From sequence record MH494197.1: DNA of 64,000 nucleotides. One strand, given 5' to 3'. The DNA is from Escherichia phage CMSTMSU. Of this stretch, positions 1-31,288 are shown in pieces. Each line of letters begins with the position of its first letter. The stretch's first letter is position 1. The notes beneath the pieces are model-generated. The model saw only the letters and a program-made list of their open reading frames with translations, did no database searches and was not told where the DNA came from. Position numbers and translations under genes: made by a program.

Positions 1-2216
1 TCACATCAAACGTTACGTTACCACCATTAACCAGAGAACCACACAACATCTCTTTAGCTAGTGGAACACGGATGTTTTGCTCAATAGTGCGTTTCATTGG
101 ACGTGCACCCATCCCAACTTTAACACCATTTGTTGCCAACCACTCACGTGCCGCTTTAGTCAGGAAACTTTAACTTTGCGGTCTTTGATTTGTTCATTCA
201 GACTACCCATGAACTTATCAATGATGCTGTCAATCGCTTCGCTGCTTAGGTCTTTGAATGTCACAATACTATCGATACGGTTGATGAATTCAGGTGGCAA
301 GAATGCTTTAATCGCTTTATCTTGTGCTGTATCACTACCGCTCATCCCAATACTACGCTTGGTTGAATCTGCTGCACCAAGGTTAGTTGTCATAATAACA
401 GTTACGTTATTGAAGTAAACAGTTTTACCTTGTGAACCAGTCAAACGTCCTTCGTCCAGAACCTGTAGGAAGGTTAGTAGTACTTTACGATCAGCTTTTT
501 CGATTTCATCAAGCAACAGTACTGCATTCGGGAACTGCTCAATCTTGTCGAGTAGCAGACCGTTACCGGAATCGTGACCAACATAGCCGGAGGTGAACCA
601 ATCAGTTTAGCAACAGTATGTTCCTGTGAAAACTCGGACATATCGAAACGAATCAGTTCAGAGCCAGTTGCATCAGCCAGTGCTTTGGTAATTTCAGTTT
701 TACCAGTACCAGATGGCCCAACAAACATGAATGCACCTTGAACACTTGATTTATCACGCAGACCAGCACGAGCTACCATCACGTTATCAACCAGTTTCTG
801 TACTGCTTCTTCTTGACCGTATACACGAGAACGTAGTGCATCTGGTAGATTACGCATACGTTCACTTTCAGTGCAAGCAACCACGTTAATATCTAGGTTT
901 GCGATACCTGCAACAACTTCTTGAATCAGTGCAACAGTGATGATGTTATCATCAGTTTCACGAGAACGTACTTTCGCTGCTGCCGCATCCATTAGGTCGA
1001 TTGCTTTGTCAGGGAAGTGTTTGTTCTTCAGGAACTTATCACTTAGTGTAATAACTGCATCCATTGCTTCAGTACTGAACTCTACGTTATGGAAAGTTTC
1101 ATAAGTAGATTTCAAACCATTCACAATCGCACGGGTTTCATCAATTGTTGGCTCAACTACATCAATTTTCATGAAACGGCGAGTTAGTGCACTATCTTTT
1201 CGATGTTTTACGATATTCATCGTAAGTTGTTGCACCGATTACACGAATCTCACCACGAGATAGTGCAGGTTTGAGCATGTTACTCATATCCATAGAACCG
1301 TTGCTTGCTGAACCAGCACCAACCATAATATGGATTTCATCGATGAACACAATAGTGTTTTCACGTTTCTTCAGTTCTTTGAGTAGGTTATCGATACGTT
1401 CTTCGAACTCACCACGGTACTTAGTACCAGCAGTCAGTGCACCTACGTTCAGAGACAGAATTTCAACATCTTTAAGATGCTCTGGTACTTCACCATCAGC
1501 GATTGCCTGTGCTAGACCATCAATGATTTGAGTTTTACCAACACCAGCTTCACCAGTCAGGATGGCATTCTTCTTAGTCTTACGGGCCAGAGTTTCAATC
1601 AGTGCAGAAAGCTCTTTCTGGCGACCAATCATTGGTCAAGTTTACCTTCTTTGCAAGTGCGGTTAGGTTAGTGGTGTAATCTTCTAAACCTTTTGTTTGG
1701 ACGATGGTTGTTGTTGTGCCACTTTTTCTCCCCAGTTGGCTCATCACTAATGCTTTGAAGGTTGATTCCGTTGTCGATTGCTTCTACGTGCTTCTGTAAA
1801 GTTCGTGCTGCTTCAGTACAAGTGATACCCTCTTCACGCAATGCTGCTTCTAGTGCAGTATTTGGGAATGACAAACACTCAAACAGTACAAAATAAGCAT
1901 CAATTGAGAAATCATCACGTTTAAGTTGCTCAATTACTGATTTCTTAGAAAGTTCCTGAACTACACGGTTCACAAGAAGTGATGTGCGGTTCGCTTCATC
2001 ACCATCAGCACTTTTAGGTGCATGTGGAATGTTGTATTTTTCAGATATGCAATCAAACGACCGTGTAGGTTGTCTGCATCGATGTTCATATCTTCAAATA
2101 CTGCTTTGATGCTATCGATTGTCAGTACTGTAGCACTTAGATGGTCAATAGTCAAGAAGGTATGACCCAGAGAAGTTGCCAGTTCGTCGCTTTTTGAATA
2201 ATTGGGTAAGATTCAT
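1..2216 (-). CDS. clpA: ClpA-like AAA+ unfoldase (Clp N-domain plus two AAA modules); 3' end runs off the window start; frame broken into at least 5 pieces
   Basis: ORFs 1970-2155, 1668-1973, 1192-1632, 474-1235, 160-516 together follow ClpA order: N-domain [11 protein letters not shown], Walker A GEAGVGKT, Walker B IVFIDEIH, second module GPSGTGKTE and [29 protein letters not shown] before ATG at 2216. Confidence 0.8.
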
Positions 2217-2254
2217 GTATTCTCCTAAATGAGTAGTCACTCTAATTAATAAAC

Positions 2255-2282
2255 ATTATATCACATTCTTTGCGTTTGTCAA
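2255..2282 (-). promoter_or_regulatory. sigma70-like promoter TTGACA-N16-TGATATAAT upstream of clpA-like gene
   Basis: Reverse complement reads TTGACA aacgcaaagaatgtga TATAAT with TG extended -10, about 40 nt upstream of the ATG at 2216. Confidence 0.45.
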
Positions 2283-2286
2283 CAAG

Positions 2287-2302
2287 GTAAATAAAGATAT
2301 AC
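2287..2302 (+). promoter_or_regulatory. late-promoter-like motif GTAAATAAAGATATAC
   Basis: Resembles the CTAAATA..GTATA motif found upstream of the fibre and tube genes; lies about 25 nt upstream of the ATG at 2326. Confidence 0.3.
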
Positions 2303-2325: not shown

Positions 2326-3812
2326 TGGCATATAGAATGTGGAAAAAGGTAGAACCAATGATTACAAGTTCATTGACTCTGCCATAGCAGAACAATACAA
2401 CATCGGTGGTGTTGACATGTGGCTTTATGCCTATGTCGGACCAAAACAAGTCGCTGATAACACTGATTTATCATATGGCGGTGATTATTATGGATCAGAT
2501 AGTACCGTTGTGTCAAGCATTGGTGATTTAATTTTGGTGACACTCCAAGTCGTAACTATAATCTCGAAGCTATCACCTTAAGTTGCGTCTACCAAGTCCA
2601 AGAAGCAACTCCTGACTTGAAAATCCCGATTGTTCTTCAACTTTAACACTATGGACATCACAATTCATTATAACACAATGATTCAGCGTTTGGGAAGAAA
2701 AATTATGCCGTGACGTAATCGAACTTCCTAACTTACGTGATTTTGATGTACTTGGTAAAGATTCTGGTTTAAACCGCTTCTATGTAGTACAAGATGGGTT
2801 TAGAACGTCAGAAGGTTACTCAGTTACATGGCAACATCACATTTACAAACTCCGTGTTAAACCTCTTACTGATTCACCAGAGTACTCTGACCTTCTAGGT
2901 AACAATAACTACCCTGATGACCCAGATGATCCAAACAACGGCAATGGTAATACTGATGATGGCTCTTCAGAGAACAGCAGCTATGGTAATGAAATGGATA
3001 TTATGAACCGTATCATTATGCAAGCTGATGATGAAGTACCATACATTCATTTTACTAACGAACACTTGTTCGATGACAGACCAGATACTGTTGATTTGTC
3101 TAAGTATATGCTAAATGGATACGAATTACCAGAGGAACCAGCAAATAAAATGTATTTCCTCAAGAAAACTTACCCAGTACTGAAAGAACTATCTAATGAT
3201 ACATGGATTTCTGTAGAAGTCAAGCGTGGAACAATCTTTCCTCGCAAACCGATGGATGGTGACTTCTTCTTTAAAGAAAACGAGGCTGATGTCACTGGCT
3301 TCTCATTGTATCAATACGATAAATCTGCCAAAAGTGGCTAAATTGTGATGTTGAGTATACTACAGAAAGCACACCACCACAAGGGGTTGATGATTTTTAT
3401 ATTGAATACAAAGAACCACACATTTATCAGTACTTAAATGGTAAATGGGGAGAACCAGAAGTAACTTACGTTAATGACCCATTCACTTCTAATAGTGTTT
3501 ATGGAAATATCGATTCACAACAAGATTATCGTCCTAAGATTCCTCCAGCACGAGGTACAGTTCCTGAAGGTAACATGTTCCCAAGTGATGCAGTTGATGG
3601 TGATTACTACTATCGTACCGATTATACACCAGTAACCCTATGGGAATACAGTGCGTCCAAGAATTCTTGGGTGATTTTCGATTACGGTGGTAGAAAACCG
3701 TGGAAGGTGCAGATCTTGCTCTAACAGAATTTGTTAATAGCCCGAACCGTGTGCCATTACATGATGCAGTTAAACCTAATACAGTGTATCGTATACATAA
3801 GGATTCAGAATG
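2326..3812 (+). CDS. hypothetical virion (baseplate/tail?) protein, about 495 aa, frame broken
   Basis: Same-strand ORF pieces (2339-2581, 2994-3341 and unlisted frames between) read as one protein with an Asp/Pro/Gly-rich linker; stop overlaps the next start as ATGA at 3810. Function not recognised. Confidence 0.4.
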
Positions 3813-5655: not shown

Positions 5656-6327
5656 ACCCCAATTAGTGGGATACCTGTTATGTTAAGTAGAACAGATGCT
5701 TGAAGCTTAACTGACTCACCTGCCGAAAGGTTGTTTACTATACCATCGACGCGGAACCCTAAGTTTTTATTAGAGTTGAGAGAGTTAATCACCCAGTTTT
5801 CGTAATCCGCTTTTGTAATACCATTCGGATTTGGGAGAGTTGGATCAACATCATTAATTACCATAGAAACATCCCAATTCGGGCGACTACTTGTAATTAC
5901 ATCCTTGATTGATTCTAGTTGTGTAATGCGACGTGGATCTGGAATCTGACTTGCACCAATTGAACCGAAAAATGTACCTTGGTTATCAACATAGAACTGA
6001 CCTTTAATGAAAAATGTTTTGAATTATACGGAAGAGAAACAATTTCACCTGATGAATCACTAACTTCACGAATCATAATTTTCAATTCATAAAAATAGTT
6101 ACTACCAAATTCAAACACACCAGTACCATTTGTGAATGTTGTCCAGTTATTTGAATCAACCTGTGAAGTACCACCCATATTGAAGTACGCTAATGGCTTA
6201 GTACTGTTACTTTGTGTAAATTCAATATATTTCTTACCTGTATCATAGTTGATATCAAGTAGTGTTGAGTACTCTTTATTTTCTGGACGAGATGTTTGAA
6301 TTTCACGCCATTCTTTATTTTTCATTA
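5652..6327 (-). CDS. hypothetical tail/fibre-associated protein (two ORF pieces)
   Basis: ORFs 5915-6325 and 5652-5864 in the same orientation; start ATG overlaps the upstream stop (TAATG). Confidence 0.35.
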
Positions 6328-6746
6328 GGACACGAAGGAATCACCATTACTGGTAAGAACCATACGACCCATAATACTATTTTCACCATCTGGTACTGTG
6401 TTGAAAATTGAAATCATTGGGATAGATGCCCAGTCAGCTTCAGATGCAGTATCTACTGGCTGACGAGCATTATCAACTAATGCAAGAAGTAGTTCGCCAG
6501 TGTTGCCAGTATTTCTGTACCAAATCTGACCATTAACGTTACCACGAGGTGCAGTAGCTCCACTGAAGTTCTCAACCAAGTGGAGGAAGTTTTCGTTCCA
6601 TGCTTGACCGTAACCAACTTTATTTCGACCTGCAAAGTTTAACGGTACTGGGTTACTACCGTTGGTTTGGTCCTAATATTACGTTATTTGGAATGGTAGC
6701 ATAAACGCTACCATTACTTCTATAAATTGTATAACTTACACTCATA
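6325..6746 (-). CDS. hypothetical fibre-like structural protein, about 140 aa, frame broken near N-terminus
   Basis: ATG at 6746 then MSVSYTIYRSNGSVYATIP..., continuing after a frameshift into ORF 6325-6579 (NVNGQIWYRNTGNTGELLLAL). Confidence 0.35.
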
Positions 6747-7979: not shown

Positions 7980-9105
7980 ATGACAATTTCATTCAACAAT
8001 GGGTCAGGTGGTTCATGTAATAATTCTGGCATCAAAAGTTTAGTTATTAACGCTGCTGGACATTTAATTGTAACCTATTCCGACAATACAATCCAAGACC
8101 TAGGTCTAGTGGTTGGACAAAATGGTGCTAACGGTAGAAACTTTTATCCAAATGAGATAGGTTTTGAAGTTCCTAATGAACTCTTCCGTGTTGGTGAAGA
8201 ACTAGGGTGGTGTTATCTTAGTCTTGCAAACGGCACTAGTACTTTATATTTTAAATCAAACGATGCCCAAGAAACAATTAGTACTTGGAACCGTGTAGAG
8301 TTTGGTAAAGGTGATACTGGTGAAGCTGGTAAACCATTCCACATTGACAGTTCTGGTACGGCGTTTCCAACAACTGGTCTTTTCGATAATTACACATTCT
8401 ATAATACTGAAGATGGTAAATTATATTTCTATCAAAGCGTAACTGCAACATGGAGTGATGGTATTCCTTTCCGTGGTGAACAAGGTCTACGTGGTCGTTT
8501 CCATATTGATAGTACTGGTAGTCAATTCCCAAGCATTGATAATCTACCACAAGATTATTGCTTCTATAACACGACAGATGGTAATTTGTATTATGTCGAT
8601 ATCGTAACTACATCATCAACCCCAACTAAAGAGTGGAGTGCTGGTATCTTATTCCGTGGAAAAGACGGTGAAGAAGGTAAGCAAGGTGAACAAGGTATTC
8701 AGGGTGAACGGTAAAGATACAGTTGTTATCATCAACACTATTGATCATTCATGGACTAACGCATTGTTAGTTATTGGTACATGCCCTGCTGGATACCTAG
8801 TAACTAATATCGAAGTTGATATTAACCAAGCATATGATGAACCAGTAAATGAAATGTTTGTACGTTTCGGTGGTGAAGCACAAGAAGATATTGGTGGTAC
8901 TGTAATTGCACCTGTTGATTATTTCGATATCAACCGCAAAATGCGTTACATTGTTAACGAAACCAACCACGAAGTATCAAGTAAAGATGAAATCATTTCT
9001 TGTGTATTCAATGATTCCGTAAACAACAGTTCATTTGGTGAAATGAAGATCGTTTGTACTTTATCATGGCAAGCACCTATTCAGCCTATTCAAGATAACA
9101 TTTAA
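7980..9105 (+). CDS. fibre protein with collagen-like Gly-X-Y stretch and internal ~50-aa tandem repeat (one frameshift near 8700)
   Basis: GKDGEEGKQGEQGIQGER Gly-X-Y run; repeated block HIDSSGTAFPTTGLFDNYTFYNTEDGKLYFY / HIDSTGSQFPSIDNLPQDYCFYNTTDGNLYYV; ORFs 7944-8714 and 8638-9105 overlap in different frames. Confidence 0.55.
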
Positions 9106-11294: not shown

Positions 11295-12157
11295 AAGAAG
11301 ACCTTCATACTTGGTAAAAATGGTGCACAAATTGCCACTAATGGTAATGTTGTTCAAATCCAGAACTACACGGGTACACAACTTCTTCCTGTTTCAGCAG
11401 GTGACCCAACCGCAAATACACACTTGGTTACATTGGGTTATTTGAATACACATAGCGGTGGTGGTGGCGGTTCCGGTATTTTACGTGGAACTATTGCACC
11501 ATCTGAATCAATCGGTGTAGATGGTGACGCTTACTTCTTAGTTGACAGTACTAATATTATTCAGATCTATATTAAAGACCTTGGTGTTTGGAAGCCTCTC
11601 CAAAGCACAACTCCGTACTGATAGTTCTTACGTTACTACTGAAATCGTTCCTGTATCGGCATTTACATTAGTTCACGGAACAACAGATCAATATACTTAT
11701 TCTTTACCTGAATCAGTACATGGTCGTGGTCCAGATATTATGGTTCAGCTACAGGGTGATCCCGGTAACATCCCACTTGACACTGTATTCCAAACTAACG
11801 TCACTGTGAGTGGTATTGGTGACATTACGATTGATGTTATTGGTCAAATTACTGAATACACAAGTGTCAAAGTCAACATCATAGGAGCAACAACAATGAC
11901 AGTACCTTATAGTAAATTAATTAATATAGCAGATTGGGTAGCATCTGGTGATGATTACACCATTACTGTTCCAGCGTCAGAACATAACCAAACACCTGAC
12001 AATTTGTATATTTCTATATATTCAAATAAAACACCGCAGTACAGCAGCATCACCATTTGAACTGGTAATAACCGAAACTCAAATTGATGCAAGTGGTAAT
12101 GTTACATTCACTTCTGATGAAGCGTTTAGTGGTAAAATAGTAATTTCCGGTAAATAA
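11292..12157 (+). CDS. fibre protein paralog with poly-Gly linker (frame-broken)
   Basis: N-terminus MKKTFILGKNGAQIA matches the 9148 gene N-terminus; HSGGGGGSG linker; ORFs 11292-11621, 11542-12060, 11948-12157. Confidence 0.45.
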
Positions 12158-28410: not shown

Positions 28411-28440
28411 TTATATCACCTTTTTCCAAGCTGTCCCGCT
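28411..28440 (-). promoter_or_regulatory. sigma70-like extended -10 promoter (TGATATAAT) with CGGGACA upstream element
   Basis: Reverse complement gCGGGACAgcttggaaaaaggTGATATAAT; same architecture at about 59374-59405. Confidence 0.35.
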
Positions 28441-29962: not shown

Positions 29963-31288
29963 TTAACCAAGAGAGCGTGCTTTACGTACTAGGTCAGAGT
30001 ACTTCATAACGAAGTCTTTAAACGCTGGTACATCTTTAATCGTAATCGCTACTTTATGAAGCGTGATGGTACGAATCGCCAGTACTGCCAGTTCTGCTTG
30101 AGTTGCAGAGAAGTTATGGTCTAGGAAGGTGATGAAGTTGTTGCACAGCTTACCCCAATCTTCCACTGGTAGACGTTGTTCTTGCTTCTCATTGTAGAGG
30201 TCGATAATTTTGTAAACCAGATTCAGAGTGATGAAGTAGTTCGCGGAAATATCGAGCGAAGCATCAATCTCTTTAATCTCACCCTGTAGGATGGACATGG
30301 TATCTGGTAGTTTAGCTACGTTATCAACATACTCGATGTATTCAGTTGCTACGCCTTCACCAACACGACCTGCAATCATCGCACGGAACACTTCTTTATC
30401 AATGTTCTTAACTTTCTTCAGATCTTCGTAGCGTGCTACTGCTTCCCATGAACGTGGAGAAGTACCACCACAGTGAGAAGGATCTTGTGGGCTAAGGGTG
30501 TTGAAGTGTTTAGCACCAGTGTTGTTGATGAACGCTACAGTTGCTGGGTTCAAACGCTTGCCAATCGCATAATCGTTAATCCAATCTTGATGATAAGGAA
30601 TCATTTCGATGTGGGTCATACGGTCACGCAGTGGTGTAGCTAGAGAGAACGTTACACCGCCATCAGTTTCACGGTTACCTGCTGCGAGAATCAGTGCAGT
30701 CTTAGGTAGCTTCATCTCACCAACACAACGGTCGAGGATTAGCTGATAAGACGCTGCCTGTACAATCGGCATTGCAGAGTTGATTTCGTCAAACAGAATA
30801 ACACCTTTCCAATCTGGAGACAGTTTCAGTACTTTAGGTGCTGCCCACACAACTGCTGTTTCAGCGATGTAATCTTGTGCACTAGCCAGTTCAGATTCAA
30901 TCAGTTGCTTACCATCCATATCAAGGAACACTTTCTCTGGAACTGGGATACCACGAAGGTCACTTGGTTCAATCTGAGACAAACGGAAATCGATAAAGTT
31001 AGTGTCTTGGTCGATTAGTTTGGCTTCAAACGCTGCCAGTTCACGGCGAAGTTGATCAGCATTTTCAGTATCAGCTTCGATTTGTTGTTTCATGAACTCA
31101 ATTTTGCCACGTTATCTTTACGCAGTGGGTAGTTCTCATCAGCGTATTGACGTGCGATAGCAGATTTACCGATACGGGCTACCCCAAATCATCAGGCTAT
31201 CTTGAATCATGTCAGCCAGTGCCATTGCTTCTTTAGCTTTCTTAGGAGTCAGTTTTACGTTCAGGATATCGTTGTTTTGAGTAGACAT
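29963..31288 (-). CDS. MoxR/CobS-like AAA+ ATPase (frameshift near N-terminus)
   Basis: Walker B VILFDEINSA, sensor-like ATPLRDRMTH in the 376-aa ORF; GKS-containing Walker A-like segment (IGKSAIARQYA) in a shifted frame upstream; ATG 31288 with RBS AAAGGAAA. Confidence 0.7.

Follow-up and report, generated by a model that had tools for sequence, protein, structure and literature searches.

A ClpA-like unfoldase gene in Escherichia phage CMSTMSU and its candidate ClpP and ClpS partners in related jumbo phages

The clpA gene and its transcription signals

The stretch of Escherichia phage CMSTMSU analysed here (record MH494197.1; 64,000 nucleotides, nt; called the window) begins inside clpA, the gene for a ClpA-like protein, which lies on the minus strand. 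This gene, and the putative ClpP and ClpS-like partners of its product that are encoded elsewhere in related genomes, are the subject of this report. Three-frame translation and alignment to relatives place codons 1-742 of the 762 codons of clpA at positions 1-2216, with the ATG at 2216. The 3' end lies beyond the left edge of the window. An earlier reading made from the letters alone (the sequence-only reading) had proposed looking for it further to the left, and the relatives show that 62 nt are missing, the last 20 codons and the stop. In annotated close relatives the gene is an intact 2289-nt coding sequence that is labelled 'ClpA-like protein' or 'clpA'.

A Shine-Dalgarno sequence, AGGAG, was read at positions 2222-2226 of the minus strand, 5 nt upstream of the ATG. 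Further upstream are a -35 hexamer, TTGACA (2277-2282, minus strand), and, after a spacer of 16 nt, an extended -10 element, TGATATAAT, at 2255-2263, of which the TG occupies 2263-2262 and TATAAT 2260-2255. The two hexamers match the consensus in 12 of 12 positions and, together with the TG, form the sole perfect site in the first 12 kb; three perfect sites of this type are present in the 64 kb, whereas we estimate that random sequence of this length would hold fewer than 0.1. The consensus sigma-70 promoter that the sequence-only reading had assigned to the gene is thus present at 2282-2255, where that reading had put it, although the N16 of its notation is the distance from hexamer to hexamer and not the distance to TGATATAAT. 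The promoter is identical in the phages Ecwhy_1 and fEgEco12. In slurp01, which has 84% nucleotide identity, the -35 hexamer is TAGACA and the extended -10 element is unchanged.

In the relatives a strong bidirectional intrinsic terminator with a 12-bp stem is found 5 nt past the clpA stop codon, just outside the window. It has an A-tract and a T-tract on either side and is located at 11378-11405 of the Ecwhy_1 stretch, which corresponds to a place just left of window position 1; in Ecwhy_1 it separates clpA from a convergent gene for a hypothetical protein of 3323 amino acids. Because the gene has its own sigma-70 promoter, a strong ribosome-binding site and, in relatives, a terminator directly after the stop codon, clpA is, judged by these signals, a self-contained monocistronic transcription unit that is divergent from its structural neighbours.

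A terminator-like hairpin with 11 pairs and a T-rich tail was also found at window positions 2351-2380 (minus strand), some 70 nt upstream of the -35 hexamer of clpA. It lies within the 5'-terminal part of the divergently oriented structural gene and is conserved in Ecwhy_1 (8920-8949 of its stretch). This hairpin might insulate clpA from antisense read-through.

Genomic setting and integrity of clpA

By megablast the clpA region matches nine jumbo coliphages that have genomes of 352-384 kb (Turkey3, WPEC5, WPEC3, EC.P1, vB_Ec-M-J, fEgEco12, Ecwhy_1, TH47 and BF17) at a nucleotide identity of 98.4-99.2%, and the 121Q/PBECO4/slurp01 group at about 84%. The next 19.7 kb show the same pattern of matches to jumbo coliphages, and positions 22217-64000 of the window form a single collinear match of 40.7 kb to fEgEco12 with 99.0% identity. 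The window corresponds to approximately 105.9-170.3 kb of fEgEco12. It is collinear over its whole length with genomes of the Asteriusvirus type, and the clpA locus is flanked on both sides by blocks of structural genes; the neighbours of clpA are genes for a tail sheath stabiliser, for structural proteins and for the 3323-amino-acid protein. By this comparison the replicon is a jumbo myovirus of E. coli of the Asteriusvirus type (121Q/PBECO4/RaK2-like). That the locus might belong to flanking bacterial DNA was considered and is ruled out, since it lies deep inside phage DNA according to the collinear comparison. The sequence-only reading was therefore right in calling the gene phage-encoded.

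In the sequence as given, clpA is not one open reading frame (ORF). The ORF listing yields only fragments of 61-253 amino acids, and three-frame translation of window positions 1-2300 shows that the coding sequence is spread over all three frames of the minus strand. The ClpA-type coding recognised in the sequence-only reading is present, but 11 frameshifts had been silently corrected there. A base-by-base alignment to Ecwhy_1 contains 11 single-base deletions in clpA and no insertions; seven of the deletions are in runs of A4-A7, three in CCC runs and one outside homopolymers. In alignment to Ecwhy_1 and fEgEco12 they extend over positions 165-2196 (minus strand) and follow window bases 2196 (two bases), 2028, 1728, 1695, 1653, 1636, 1210, 1201, 589 and 165.

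Taken at face value, the 11 frame-breaking deletions that stand in the sequence would make clpA a decaying pseudogene in this phage, an explanation to which we give next to no weight. Ten of the 11 are in homopolymers and none is accompanied by an insertion, and the same deletion-only rate of about 0.5% is found over 53 kb of flanking phage genes. Compared with Ecwhy_1, the flanking 11.3 kb have 57 deletions, no insertions and 80 substitutions, with 32 of the 57 deletions within homopolymers of at least 4, which make up 5% of the bases; a further 42 kb, compared with fEgEco12, have 222 short deletions against one insertion. The excess of deletions relative to close relatives is thus window-wide, about 0.5%, and concentrated in homopolymers of at least 4. 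When the 11 bases are restored, the protein is 100% identical to that of Ecwhy_1 (QAY00476.1), as well as to those of fEgEco12 (XBS49409.1) and EC.P1, and all 18 substitutions in clpA relative to Ecwhy_1 are synonymous. Because the changes consist of deletions only, are biased to homopolymers, occur throughout the window and leave a repaired protein that is identical to that of relatives with synonymous changes only, the frameshifts are, on the evidence of these alignments, a sequencing artefact caused by under-calling of homopolymers, in a gene under purifying selection. The clpA gene as carried by the phage is almost certainly intact.

The clpA genes of the Asteriusvirus-type relatives have the same length, neighbourhood, promoter and terminator, and the copy in the window differs from them only by the sequencing deletions and the missing 3' end. 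The ClpA proteins of slurp01 (SCA80456.1) and Sharanji are 93% identical to the repaired protein; 121Q, PBECO4 and phAPEC6 are also among the phages with a close ClpA-like protein. Owing to the deletion pattern most long genes in the window are expected to look frameshifted, and a pseudogene or frameshift seen at any other place in it should not be trusted.

Architecture of the ClpA-like protein

The repaired protein has 762 amino acids and comprises an N-domain and the two modules D1 and D2; a middle domain is lacking. Among NCBIfam models that of ClpA scores best (TIGR02639, 751.6 bits) and is matched in one collinear stretch (residues 3-741 against 5-733 of 734), and the best match in the PDB is E. 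coli ClpA (17-741 against 20-734, E 6e-178). The lack of a middle domain is evident from the uninterrupted alignment to ClpA models and structures, whereas ClpB and ClpC align in two stretches.

The N-domain (residues 1-150, window 1770-2216, minus strand) is a divergent double-repeat Clp_N domain as seen with Pfam, HHalign, AlphaFold2 (AF2) and Foldseek. The Pfam match to Clp_N is marginal, 21.3 bits with a cutoff of 20.7, and covers the first repeat only. HHalign against the N-domain of E. coli ClpA gave 95% probability (E 4e-8, 121 columns). The AF2 model has a predicted local distance difference test score (pLDDT) of 84 and a predicted template modelling (TM) score of 0.81, and the top 50 Foldseek matches of this model in the PDB are all Clp/Hsp100 N-domains, with that of E. 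coli ClpA the best by TM-score (0.65/0.73) and by identity.

The D1 AAA+ module (residues 179-440, window 906-1687, minus strand) matches Pfam AAA with 102.8 bits and AAA_lid_9 with 74.3 bits. It contains the Walker A motif GEAGVGKT (1554-1531), the pore-1 loop KYRGEF (1422-1405), the Walker B motif VFIDEIH (1350-1330) and the arginine fingers LTRRF (1187-1173), all on the minus strand. The D2 AAA+ module (residues 441-741, window 5-905, minus strand) matches AAA_2 with 167.6 bits and ClpB_D2-small with 76.9 bits, and has, on the same strand, Walker A GPSGTGKT (719-696), pore-1 GYVG (588-577), Walker B LLLDEIEK (519-496), the arginine finger FINRID (288-271) and sensor-2 GARPMKR (109-89). The Walker motifs, the loss of which after error correction would have told against the sequence-only reading, are intact. 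All 26 proteins sampled from the phage clade keep the Walker, pore-loop, arginine-finger and sensor-2 motifs, apart from single conservative substitutions in its most divergent members. Within this clade the N-domain is the fastest-evolving folded part of the protein, with identity falling from 77% to 30%, while that of D1 and D2 in the same comparison falls from about 90% to 58-65%.

E. coli ClpA (PDB 1KSF/1R6B and 6W1Z; TIGR02639) shares with the phage protein the collinear N-D1-D2 order without a middle domain, a similar length (758 against 762 amino acids), Walker A and B, the KYR and GYVG pore loops, the arginine fingers, sensor-2 and the position of the docking loop. The two differ in that they are 41% identical overall, with 20% in the N-domain, 50% in D1 and 44% in D2. 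The ClpB/Hsp104 and ClpC/ClpE proteins share the two class-1 AAA+ modules and Clp_N and give strong PDB matches, but have a coiled-coil middle domain that the phage protein lacks, and ClpB is without the ClpP-docking loop that the phage protein has. By domain order and motifs the protein is a full-length two-ring AAA+ unfoldase of ClpA architecture with intact ATPase and pore-loop motifs. The description in the sequence-only reading, full-length ClpA type with N-domain and both AAA+ modules, agrees with the Pfam, NCBIfam, PDB, HHalign and AF2/Foldseek results.

Distribution among jumbo phages

The phage ClpA proteins form a clade with 54-100% identity, encoded on contigs of 330-385 kb, while bacterial ClpA is at most 45% identical. 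At an identity of at least 60%, ClpA of this clade was found in 70 phage records, the hosts of which include Escherichia, Klebsiella, Salmonella, Erwinia, Yersinia and Cronobacter. The ClpA proteins of RaK2 (gp069), GAP32, CBB, Serratia BF and Salmonella SE_PL/Munch belong to the same family and have the same architecture. More distant copies of the family are present in PA5oct-like phages, in Agrobacterium phage Atu_ph07 (gp292) and in uncultured megaphages. Identity to the window protein falls from 75% (RaK2) to 39-41% (Atu_ph07, PA5oct), and the N-domain and docking tripeptide vary from lineage to lineage; in these other jumbo phages too ClpA co-occurs with phage ClpP and ClpS. The deep and separate phage clade points to an old acquisition and not to a recent capture from the host, as far as can be told from sequence comparison.

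The sequence-only reading had regarded such a gene as unusual cargo for a tailed phage. This does not hold for the present group, as the gene is found in 70 records and carries the annotation ClpA in many of them. ClpA has been described as 'highly conserved in most Rak2-like phages' (Attai 2018, PMC6102473), and Iyer et al. (2021, PMC7824862) list it as an AAA+ chaperone of jumbo-phage subgroup 2.2. The clpA gene is a conserved, already annotated and already known core gene of 121Q/RaK2-like phages, and finding it here adds little to its annotation in dozens of jumbo-phage genomes and its mention in two comparative papers.

Phage ClpP and the docking interface

Searches of the window with tblastn, using E. 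coli ClpP, ClpS and ClpX and the ClpS of GAP32, identified no clpP, clpS or clpX; the only match was a weak one of ClpX to the AAA+ region of clpA. The sequence-only reading had correctly noted that clpP and clpS are not visible in the window, and had concluded that the protein must either borrow ClpP from the host or serve as a chaperone. That conclusion is undermined because it was based on the 64-kb window only and the partners lie outside it: all close relatives encode both a ClpP with an intact Ser-His-Asp triad, about 87 kb from clpA, and a protein with a ClpS fold, about 81 kb from clpA on the other side. The absence of partner genes should not be concluded from a 64-kb slice of a genome of about 360 kb.

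With E. coli ClpP as query a full-length homologue was found in 121Q, with 36% identity over 90% of the query. Every close relative of the window has this phage clpP, as does the RaK2-like group as a whole, with 71 records (E at most 1e-40). The protein matches Pfam CLP_protease with 143 bits and has kept the catalytic triad S97/H122/D171, as well as G68 and M98, in five lineages. In fEgEco12 clpP is located at 80.5 kb, clpA at 168.1 kb and the clpS-like gene at 251.8 kb, so that the two partners lie on opposite sides of clpA; both are outside the part of the relatives' genomes that is equivalent to the window. The clpP gene (6001-6696 of the 74.5-87.2 kb stretch of fEgEco12) clusters in relatives with genes for DNA ligase, a phosphoesterase and dCMP deaminase and not with head genes. 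Its promoter in relatives, TAGACA-16-TATAAT with TG, is close to that of clpA.

The ClpP-docking loop of the window protein, KRSIGMSG (residues 623-630, window 337-360, minus strand), was located by alignment to E. coli ClpA. The tripeptide IGM is at the site of I617-G618-L619, and the phage loop is two residues shorter than that of E. coli ClpA with its IGL. A loop is present at the D2 site where the sequence-only reading had suggested looking for IGF/L, with M as its third residue. In the bacterial ClpA sequences sampled the tripeptide is IG[LF], while the variants IGM, LGL, LGM, IGV, IGA, IGG, LGF, LGH, MGM, VGM, MNM, MSM and TAI were found within the phage clade. In most phage lineages the loop has stayed hydrophobic.

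In E. coli ClpP, 12 hydrophobic residues hold the IGL loop of ClpA and R192 makes an electrostatic contact (bioRxiv 10.1101/820209). The positions compared were L23, L48, F49, A52, Y60, Y62, F82, I90, M92, F112, L114, L189 and R192. In Asteriusvirus ClpP only two of the 12 hydrophobic residues (Y62 and M92) are unchanged, in addition to R192. The changes include Y60T, F82S, L114G, F49W and A52S, and most of the positions are still hydrophobic. From the changes in both partners we infer that the phage ClpA loop and the phage ClpP pocket have probably co-evolved into a private interface.

The phage ClpA might instead dock onto host E. coli ClpP and redirect this peptidase to substrates chosen by the phage. 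The hydrophobic-Gly-hydrophobic tripeptide at the position of the E. coli IGL, the 44% identity of D2 to E. coli ClpA and the abundance of host ClpP are in keeping with this, but the phage lineage carries a catalytically intact ClpP of its own, and the remodelling of its pocket in step with the loop suggests a private interface. The loop is also two residues shorter with a changed third residue, and docking is highly sensitive to such alterations: in ClpXP it is abolished by I268L, by F270L, by an altered loop length and by ClpP R192K alike (PMC7112951). Because loop and pocket are both remodelled and docking in ClpXP is sensitive to change, host ClpP is a less likely partner than phage ClpP, and we consider its use by the phage unfoldase quite improbable.

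A conserved C-terminal extension of about 17 amino acids, with the consensus NE.GK.LVKRRGGVEEWV, is common to the phage ClpPs of four lineages and absent from E. coli ClpP. It comes directly after the strand that supplies L189 and R192 to the docking pocket. A covariation between the ClpA tripeptide and ClpP position 192 (R with IGM or LGM, K with IGV or MNM) was looked at as well; it is suggestive, and five lineages are too few to claim it.

Three further assignments in the clpP region were considered and rejected. RefSeq- and PHROG-style labels describe the phage ClpP as a head-maturation protease, but in phAPEC6 and Sharanji a T4 gp21-like prohead protease is encoded separately, beside the capsid gene; for phAPEC6 this gp21-like protease has been reported together with a list of 62 virion proteins that contains no Clp protein (PMC7247149). 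A second 'ClpP-like' gene (121Q gp473, fEgEco12 g214) as a ClpP2 partner was dismissed, as its Pfam score is 16.7-20.6 bits and the catalytic residues align poorly; the N-terminus of this protein is hydrophobic and signal-like. A 'ClpYQ-like' protease (gp475/g216) has no Pfam match. These two genes are in the clpP neighbourhood (74.5-87.2 kb of fEgEco12, 209.4-220.0 kb of 121Q), as is g200/gp457, which encodes a DnaJ zinc-finger-like 'chaperone' of 75 amino acids near clpP in relatives.

A ClpS-like protein in the relatives

A ClpS-like gene was found in 71 records by stepping through the GAP32 protein. In fEgEco12 it occupies 251,795-252,340 and encodes 181 amino acids. Its core gave 90.8% against ClpS with HHalign, and the AF2 model has a pLDDT of 84. 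The top 35 matches of this model in the PDB with Foldseek are all ClpS; for most of the 30 strongest the target-normalised TM-score is 0.8-0.9, and the root mean square deviation is about 1-2 A over 77-87 columns. The Pfam score of the fEgEco12 protein is 15.6 with a cutoff of 23, which may explain why it escaped Iyer et al. (PMC7824862).

The model predicts an N-terminal domain of three strands and two helices (residues 6-64) in front of the ClpS core and a C-terminal helix after it. The invariant residues D82, D83, T86, A88 and N114 align with N34, D35, T38, M40 and H66 of E. coli ClpS, which we take to be positions of the N-degron pocket. Replacement of the gatekeeper methionine of ClpS by alanine widens its specificity, and structures of the Caulobacter ClpS M53A mutant are among the Foldseek matches of the phage protein. 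The clpS-like gene begins 13 nt downstream of a gene for phage translation initiation factor 3 (IF3), and the IF3-clpS promoter, TTGACA-17-TATAAT, is perfect.

Proposed function

The ClpA clade (70 records), ClpP (71) and the ClpS-like protein (71) have near-identical host-genus breakdowns and occur in essentially the same set of about 70 RaK2-like genomes. Together with the remodelled interface and the similar promoters, this co-occurrence favours a role of the window protein as the unfoldase of a phage-encoded ClpA-ClpP-ClpS protease, to which we assign a probability of roughly 0.6 on sequence and model evidence.

In such a protease clpA would be transcribed early by host RNA polymerase without phage factors, and the same would likely hold for clpP and IF3-clpS because their promoters are of the same kind. 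The ClpA hexamer would dock through its IGM loops onto a tetradecamer of the phage's own ClpP, with its remodelled docking pockets and conserved C-terminal extension. The ClpS-like adaptor would hand substrates to ClpA via the divergent N-domain, and the assembled ClpAPS protease would degrade selected host or phage proteins during infection.

A different role, in which ClpA needs no ClpP and aids virion-protein folding, assembly or head packaging by itself, be it as an unfoldase, a chaperone or a translocase, has more in its favour than the use of host ClpP. Chaperone activity on RepA is known for E. coli ClpA by itself. The location of clpA between structural-gene blocks and the poorly constrained docking tripeptide of the phage clade fit this role as well, and a translocase or assembly role has been put forward by Iyer et al. 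(2021, PMC7824862). Set against it are the divergence of clpA from its neighbours, its promoter of sigma-70 and not of late type, and its insulation by a terminator. The near-strict co-occurrence with ClpP and ClpS-like genes, the phAPEC6 virion proteome without a Clp protein and the loop hydrophobicity retained in most lineages also count against it, and on balance we regard a stand-alone role as unlikely.

Several observations weigh against the phage-encoded ClpAPS protease. The TIGR02639 score of 751.6 is below the NCBI equivalog cutoff of 993.15; because of this, and although ClpA tops the families scored, the protein should on these scores be filed as ClpA-like or ClpA-family rather than as a bacterial ClpA equivalog. 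The three genes lie scattered, clpP and the clpS-like gene each about 80-87 kb from clpA, and share no operon. The docking tripeptide is non-canonical and variable in the clade, in some members without the central glycine (MNM, MSM, TAI), and this variability could reflect relaxed constraint on docking. Only one of the three positions of E. coli ClpS that presumably contact ClpA is kept in the ClpS-like protein (E79, while E82 and K84 differ). Its N-terminal part of about 70 amino acids is predicted to be folded and not a disordered N-terminal extension, the segment that in E. coli ClpS is fed into the ClpA pore (PMC9663308). The ClpP of CBB gave one peptide in a virion preparation (PMC5259590). 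In the literature no expression, interaction or biochemical data on these phage Clp proteins were found; temporal expression was sought in publications on phAPEC6, Sharanji and fEgEco12, in which Clp is not mentioned, and transcript data for the group were not found.

A more far-reaching version of the ClpAPS protease is possible but tentative. RaK2/121Q-like phages would own a complete and host-insulated proteolysis system that is deployed early in infection to destroy chosen host proteins, such as those of defence or stress response. It would consist of an adaptor of ClpS fold with an additional folded N-terminal domain and the gatekeeper change from methionine to alanine, a ClpA whose N-domain has about 20% identity to that of the host, and the remodelled ClpP with its conserved C-terminal tail. 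There would be no cross-talk with host ClpAPS. All three genes have promoters of the sigma-70 type.

Phage ClpA, ClpP and ClpS-like proteins are conserved together, their interfaces are remodelled and their promoters resemble each other. In the literature searched, no experimental work on a ClpAPS machine encoded by a phage was found. A machine of this kind could reveal by what means the host proteome is reshaped in infections by giant phages, or supply an orthogonal degradation system for synthetic biology. Most worth pursuing is the hypothesis that these phages have an orthogonal N-degron protease.

Other promoter-like sites in the window

Two tandem perfect sigma-70 promoters (12 of 12, with extended -10) are present on the minus strand at 31574-31547 and 31483-31456. 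They have the form GTTGACAA-N11-TGTG(A/T)TATAATG and belong with the clpA promoter in one class. Their position corresponds to a 317-bp gap upstream of fEgEco12 g308, an 'ATPase' of 442 amino acids with weak AAA/MoxR-like Pfam matches, which in the window appears as an ORF of 376 amino acids at 29963-31093. Scans of the whole window for tRNA genes and Rfam families, including the long leader below the tandem promoters, gave no match, so no known RNA gene is under the control of the two promoters near 31.5 kb.

Three more promoter-like sites, at 28435, 47337 and 59396 (minus strand), read GGACA-N13/14-TGATATAAT; their extended -10 element is perfect and their -35 weak. Taken together with the promoters of clpA, clpP and g214, their sequences suggest a class of phage promoters that is defined mainly by TGnTATAAT.

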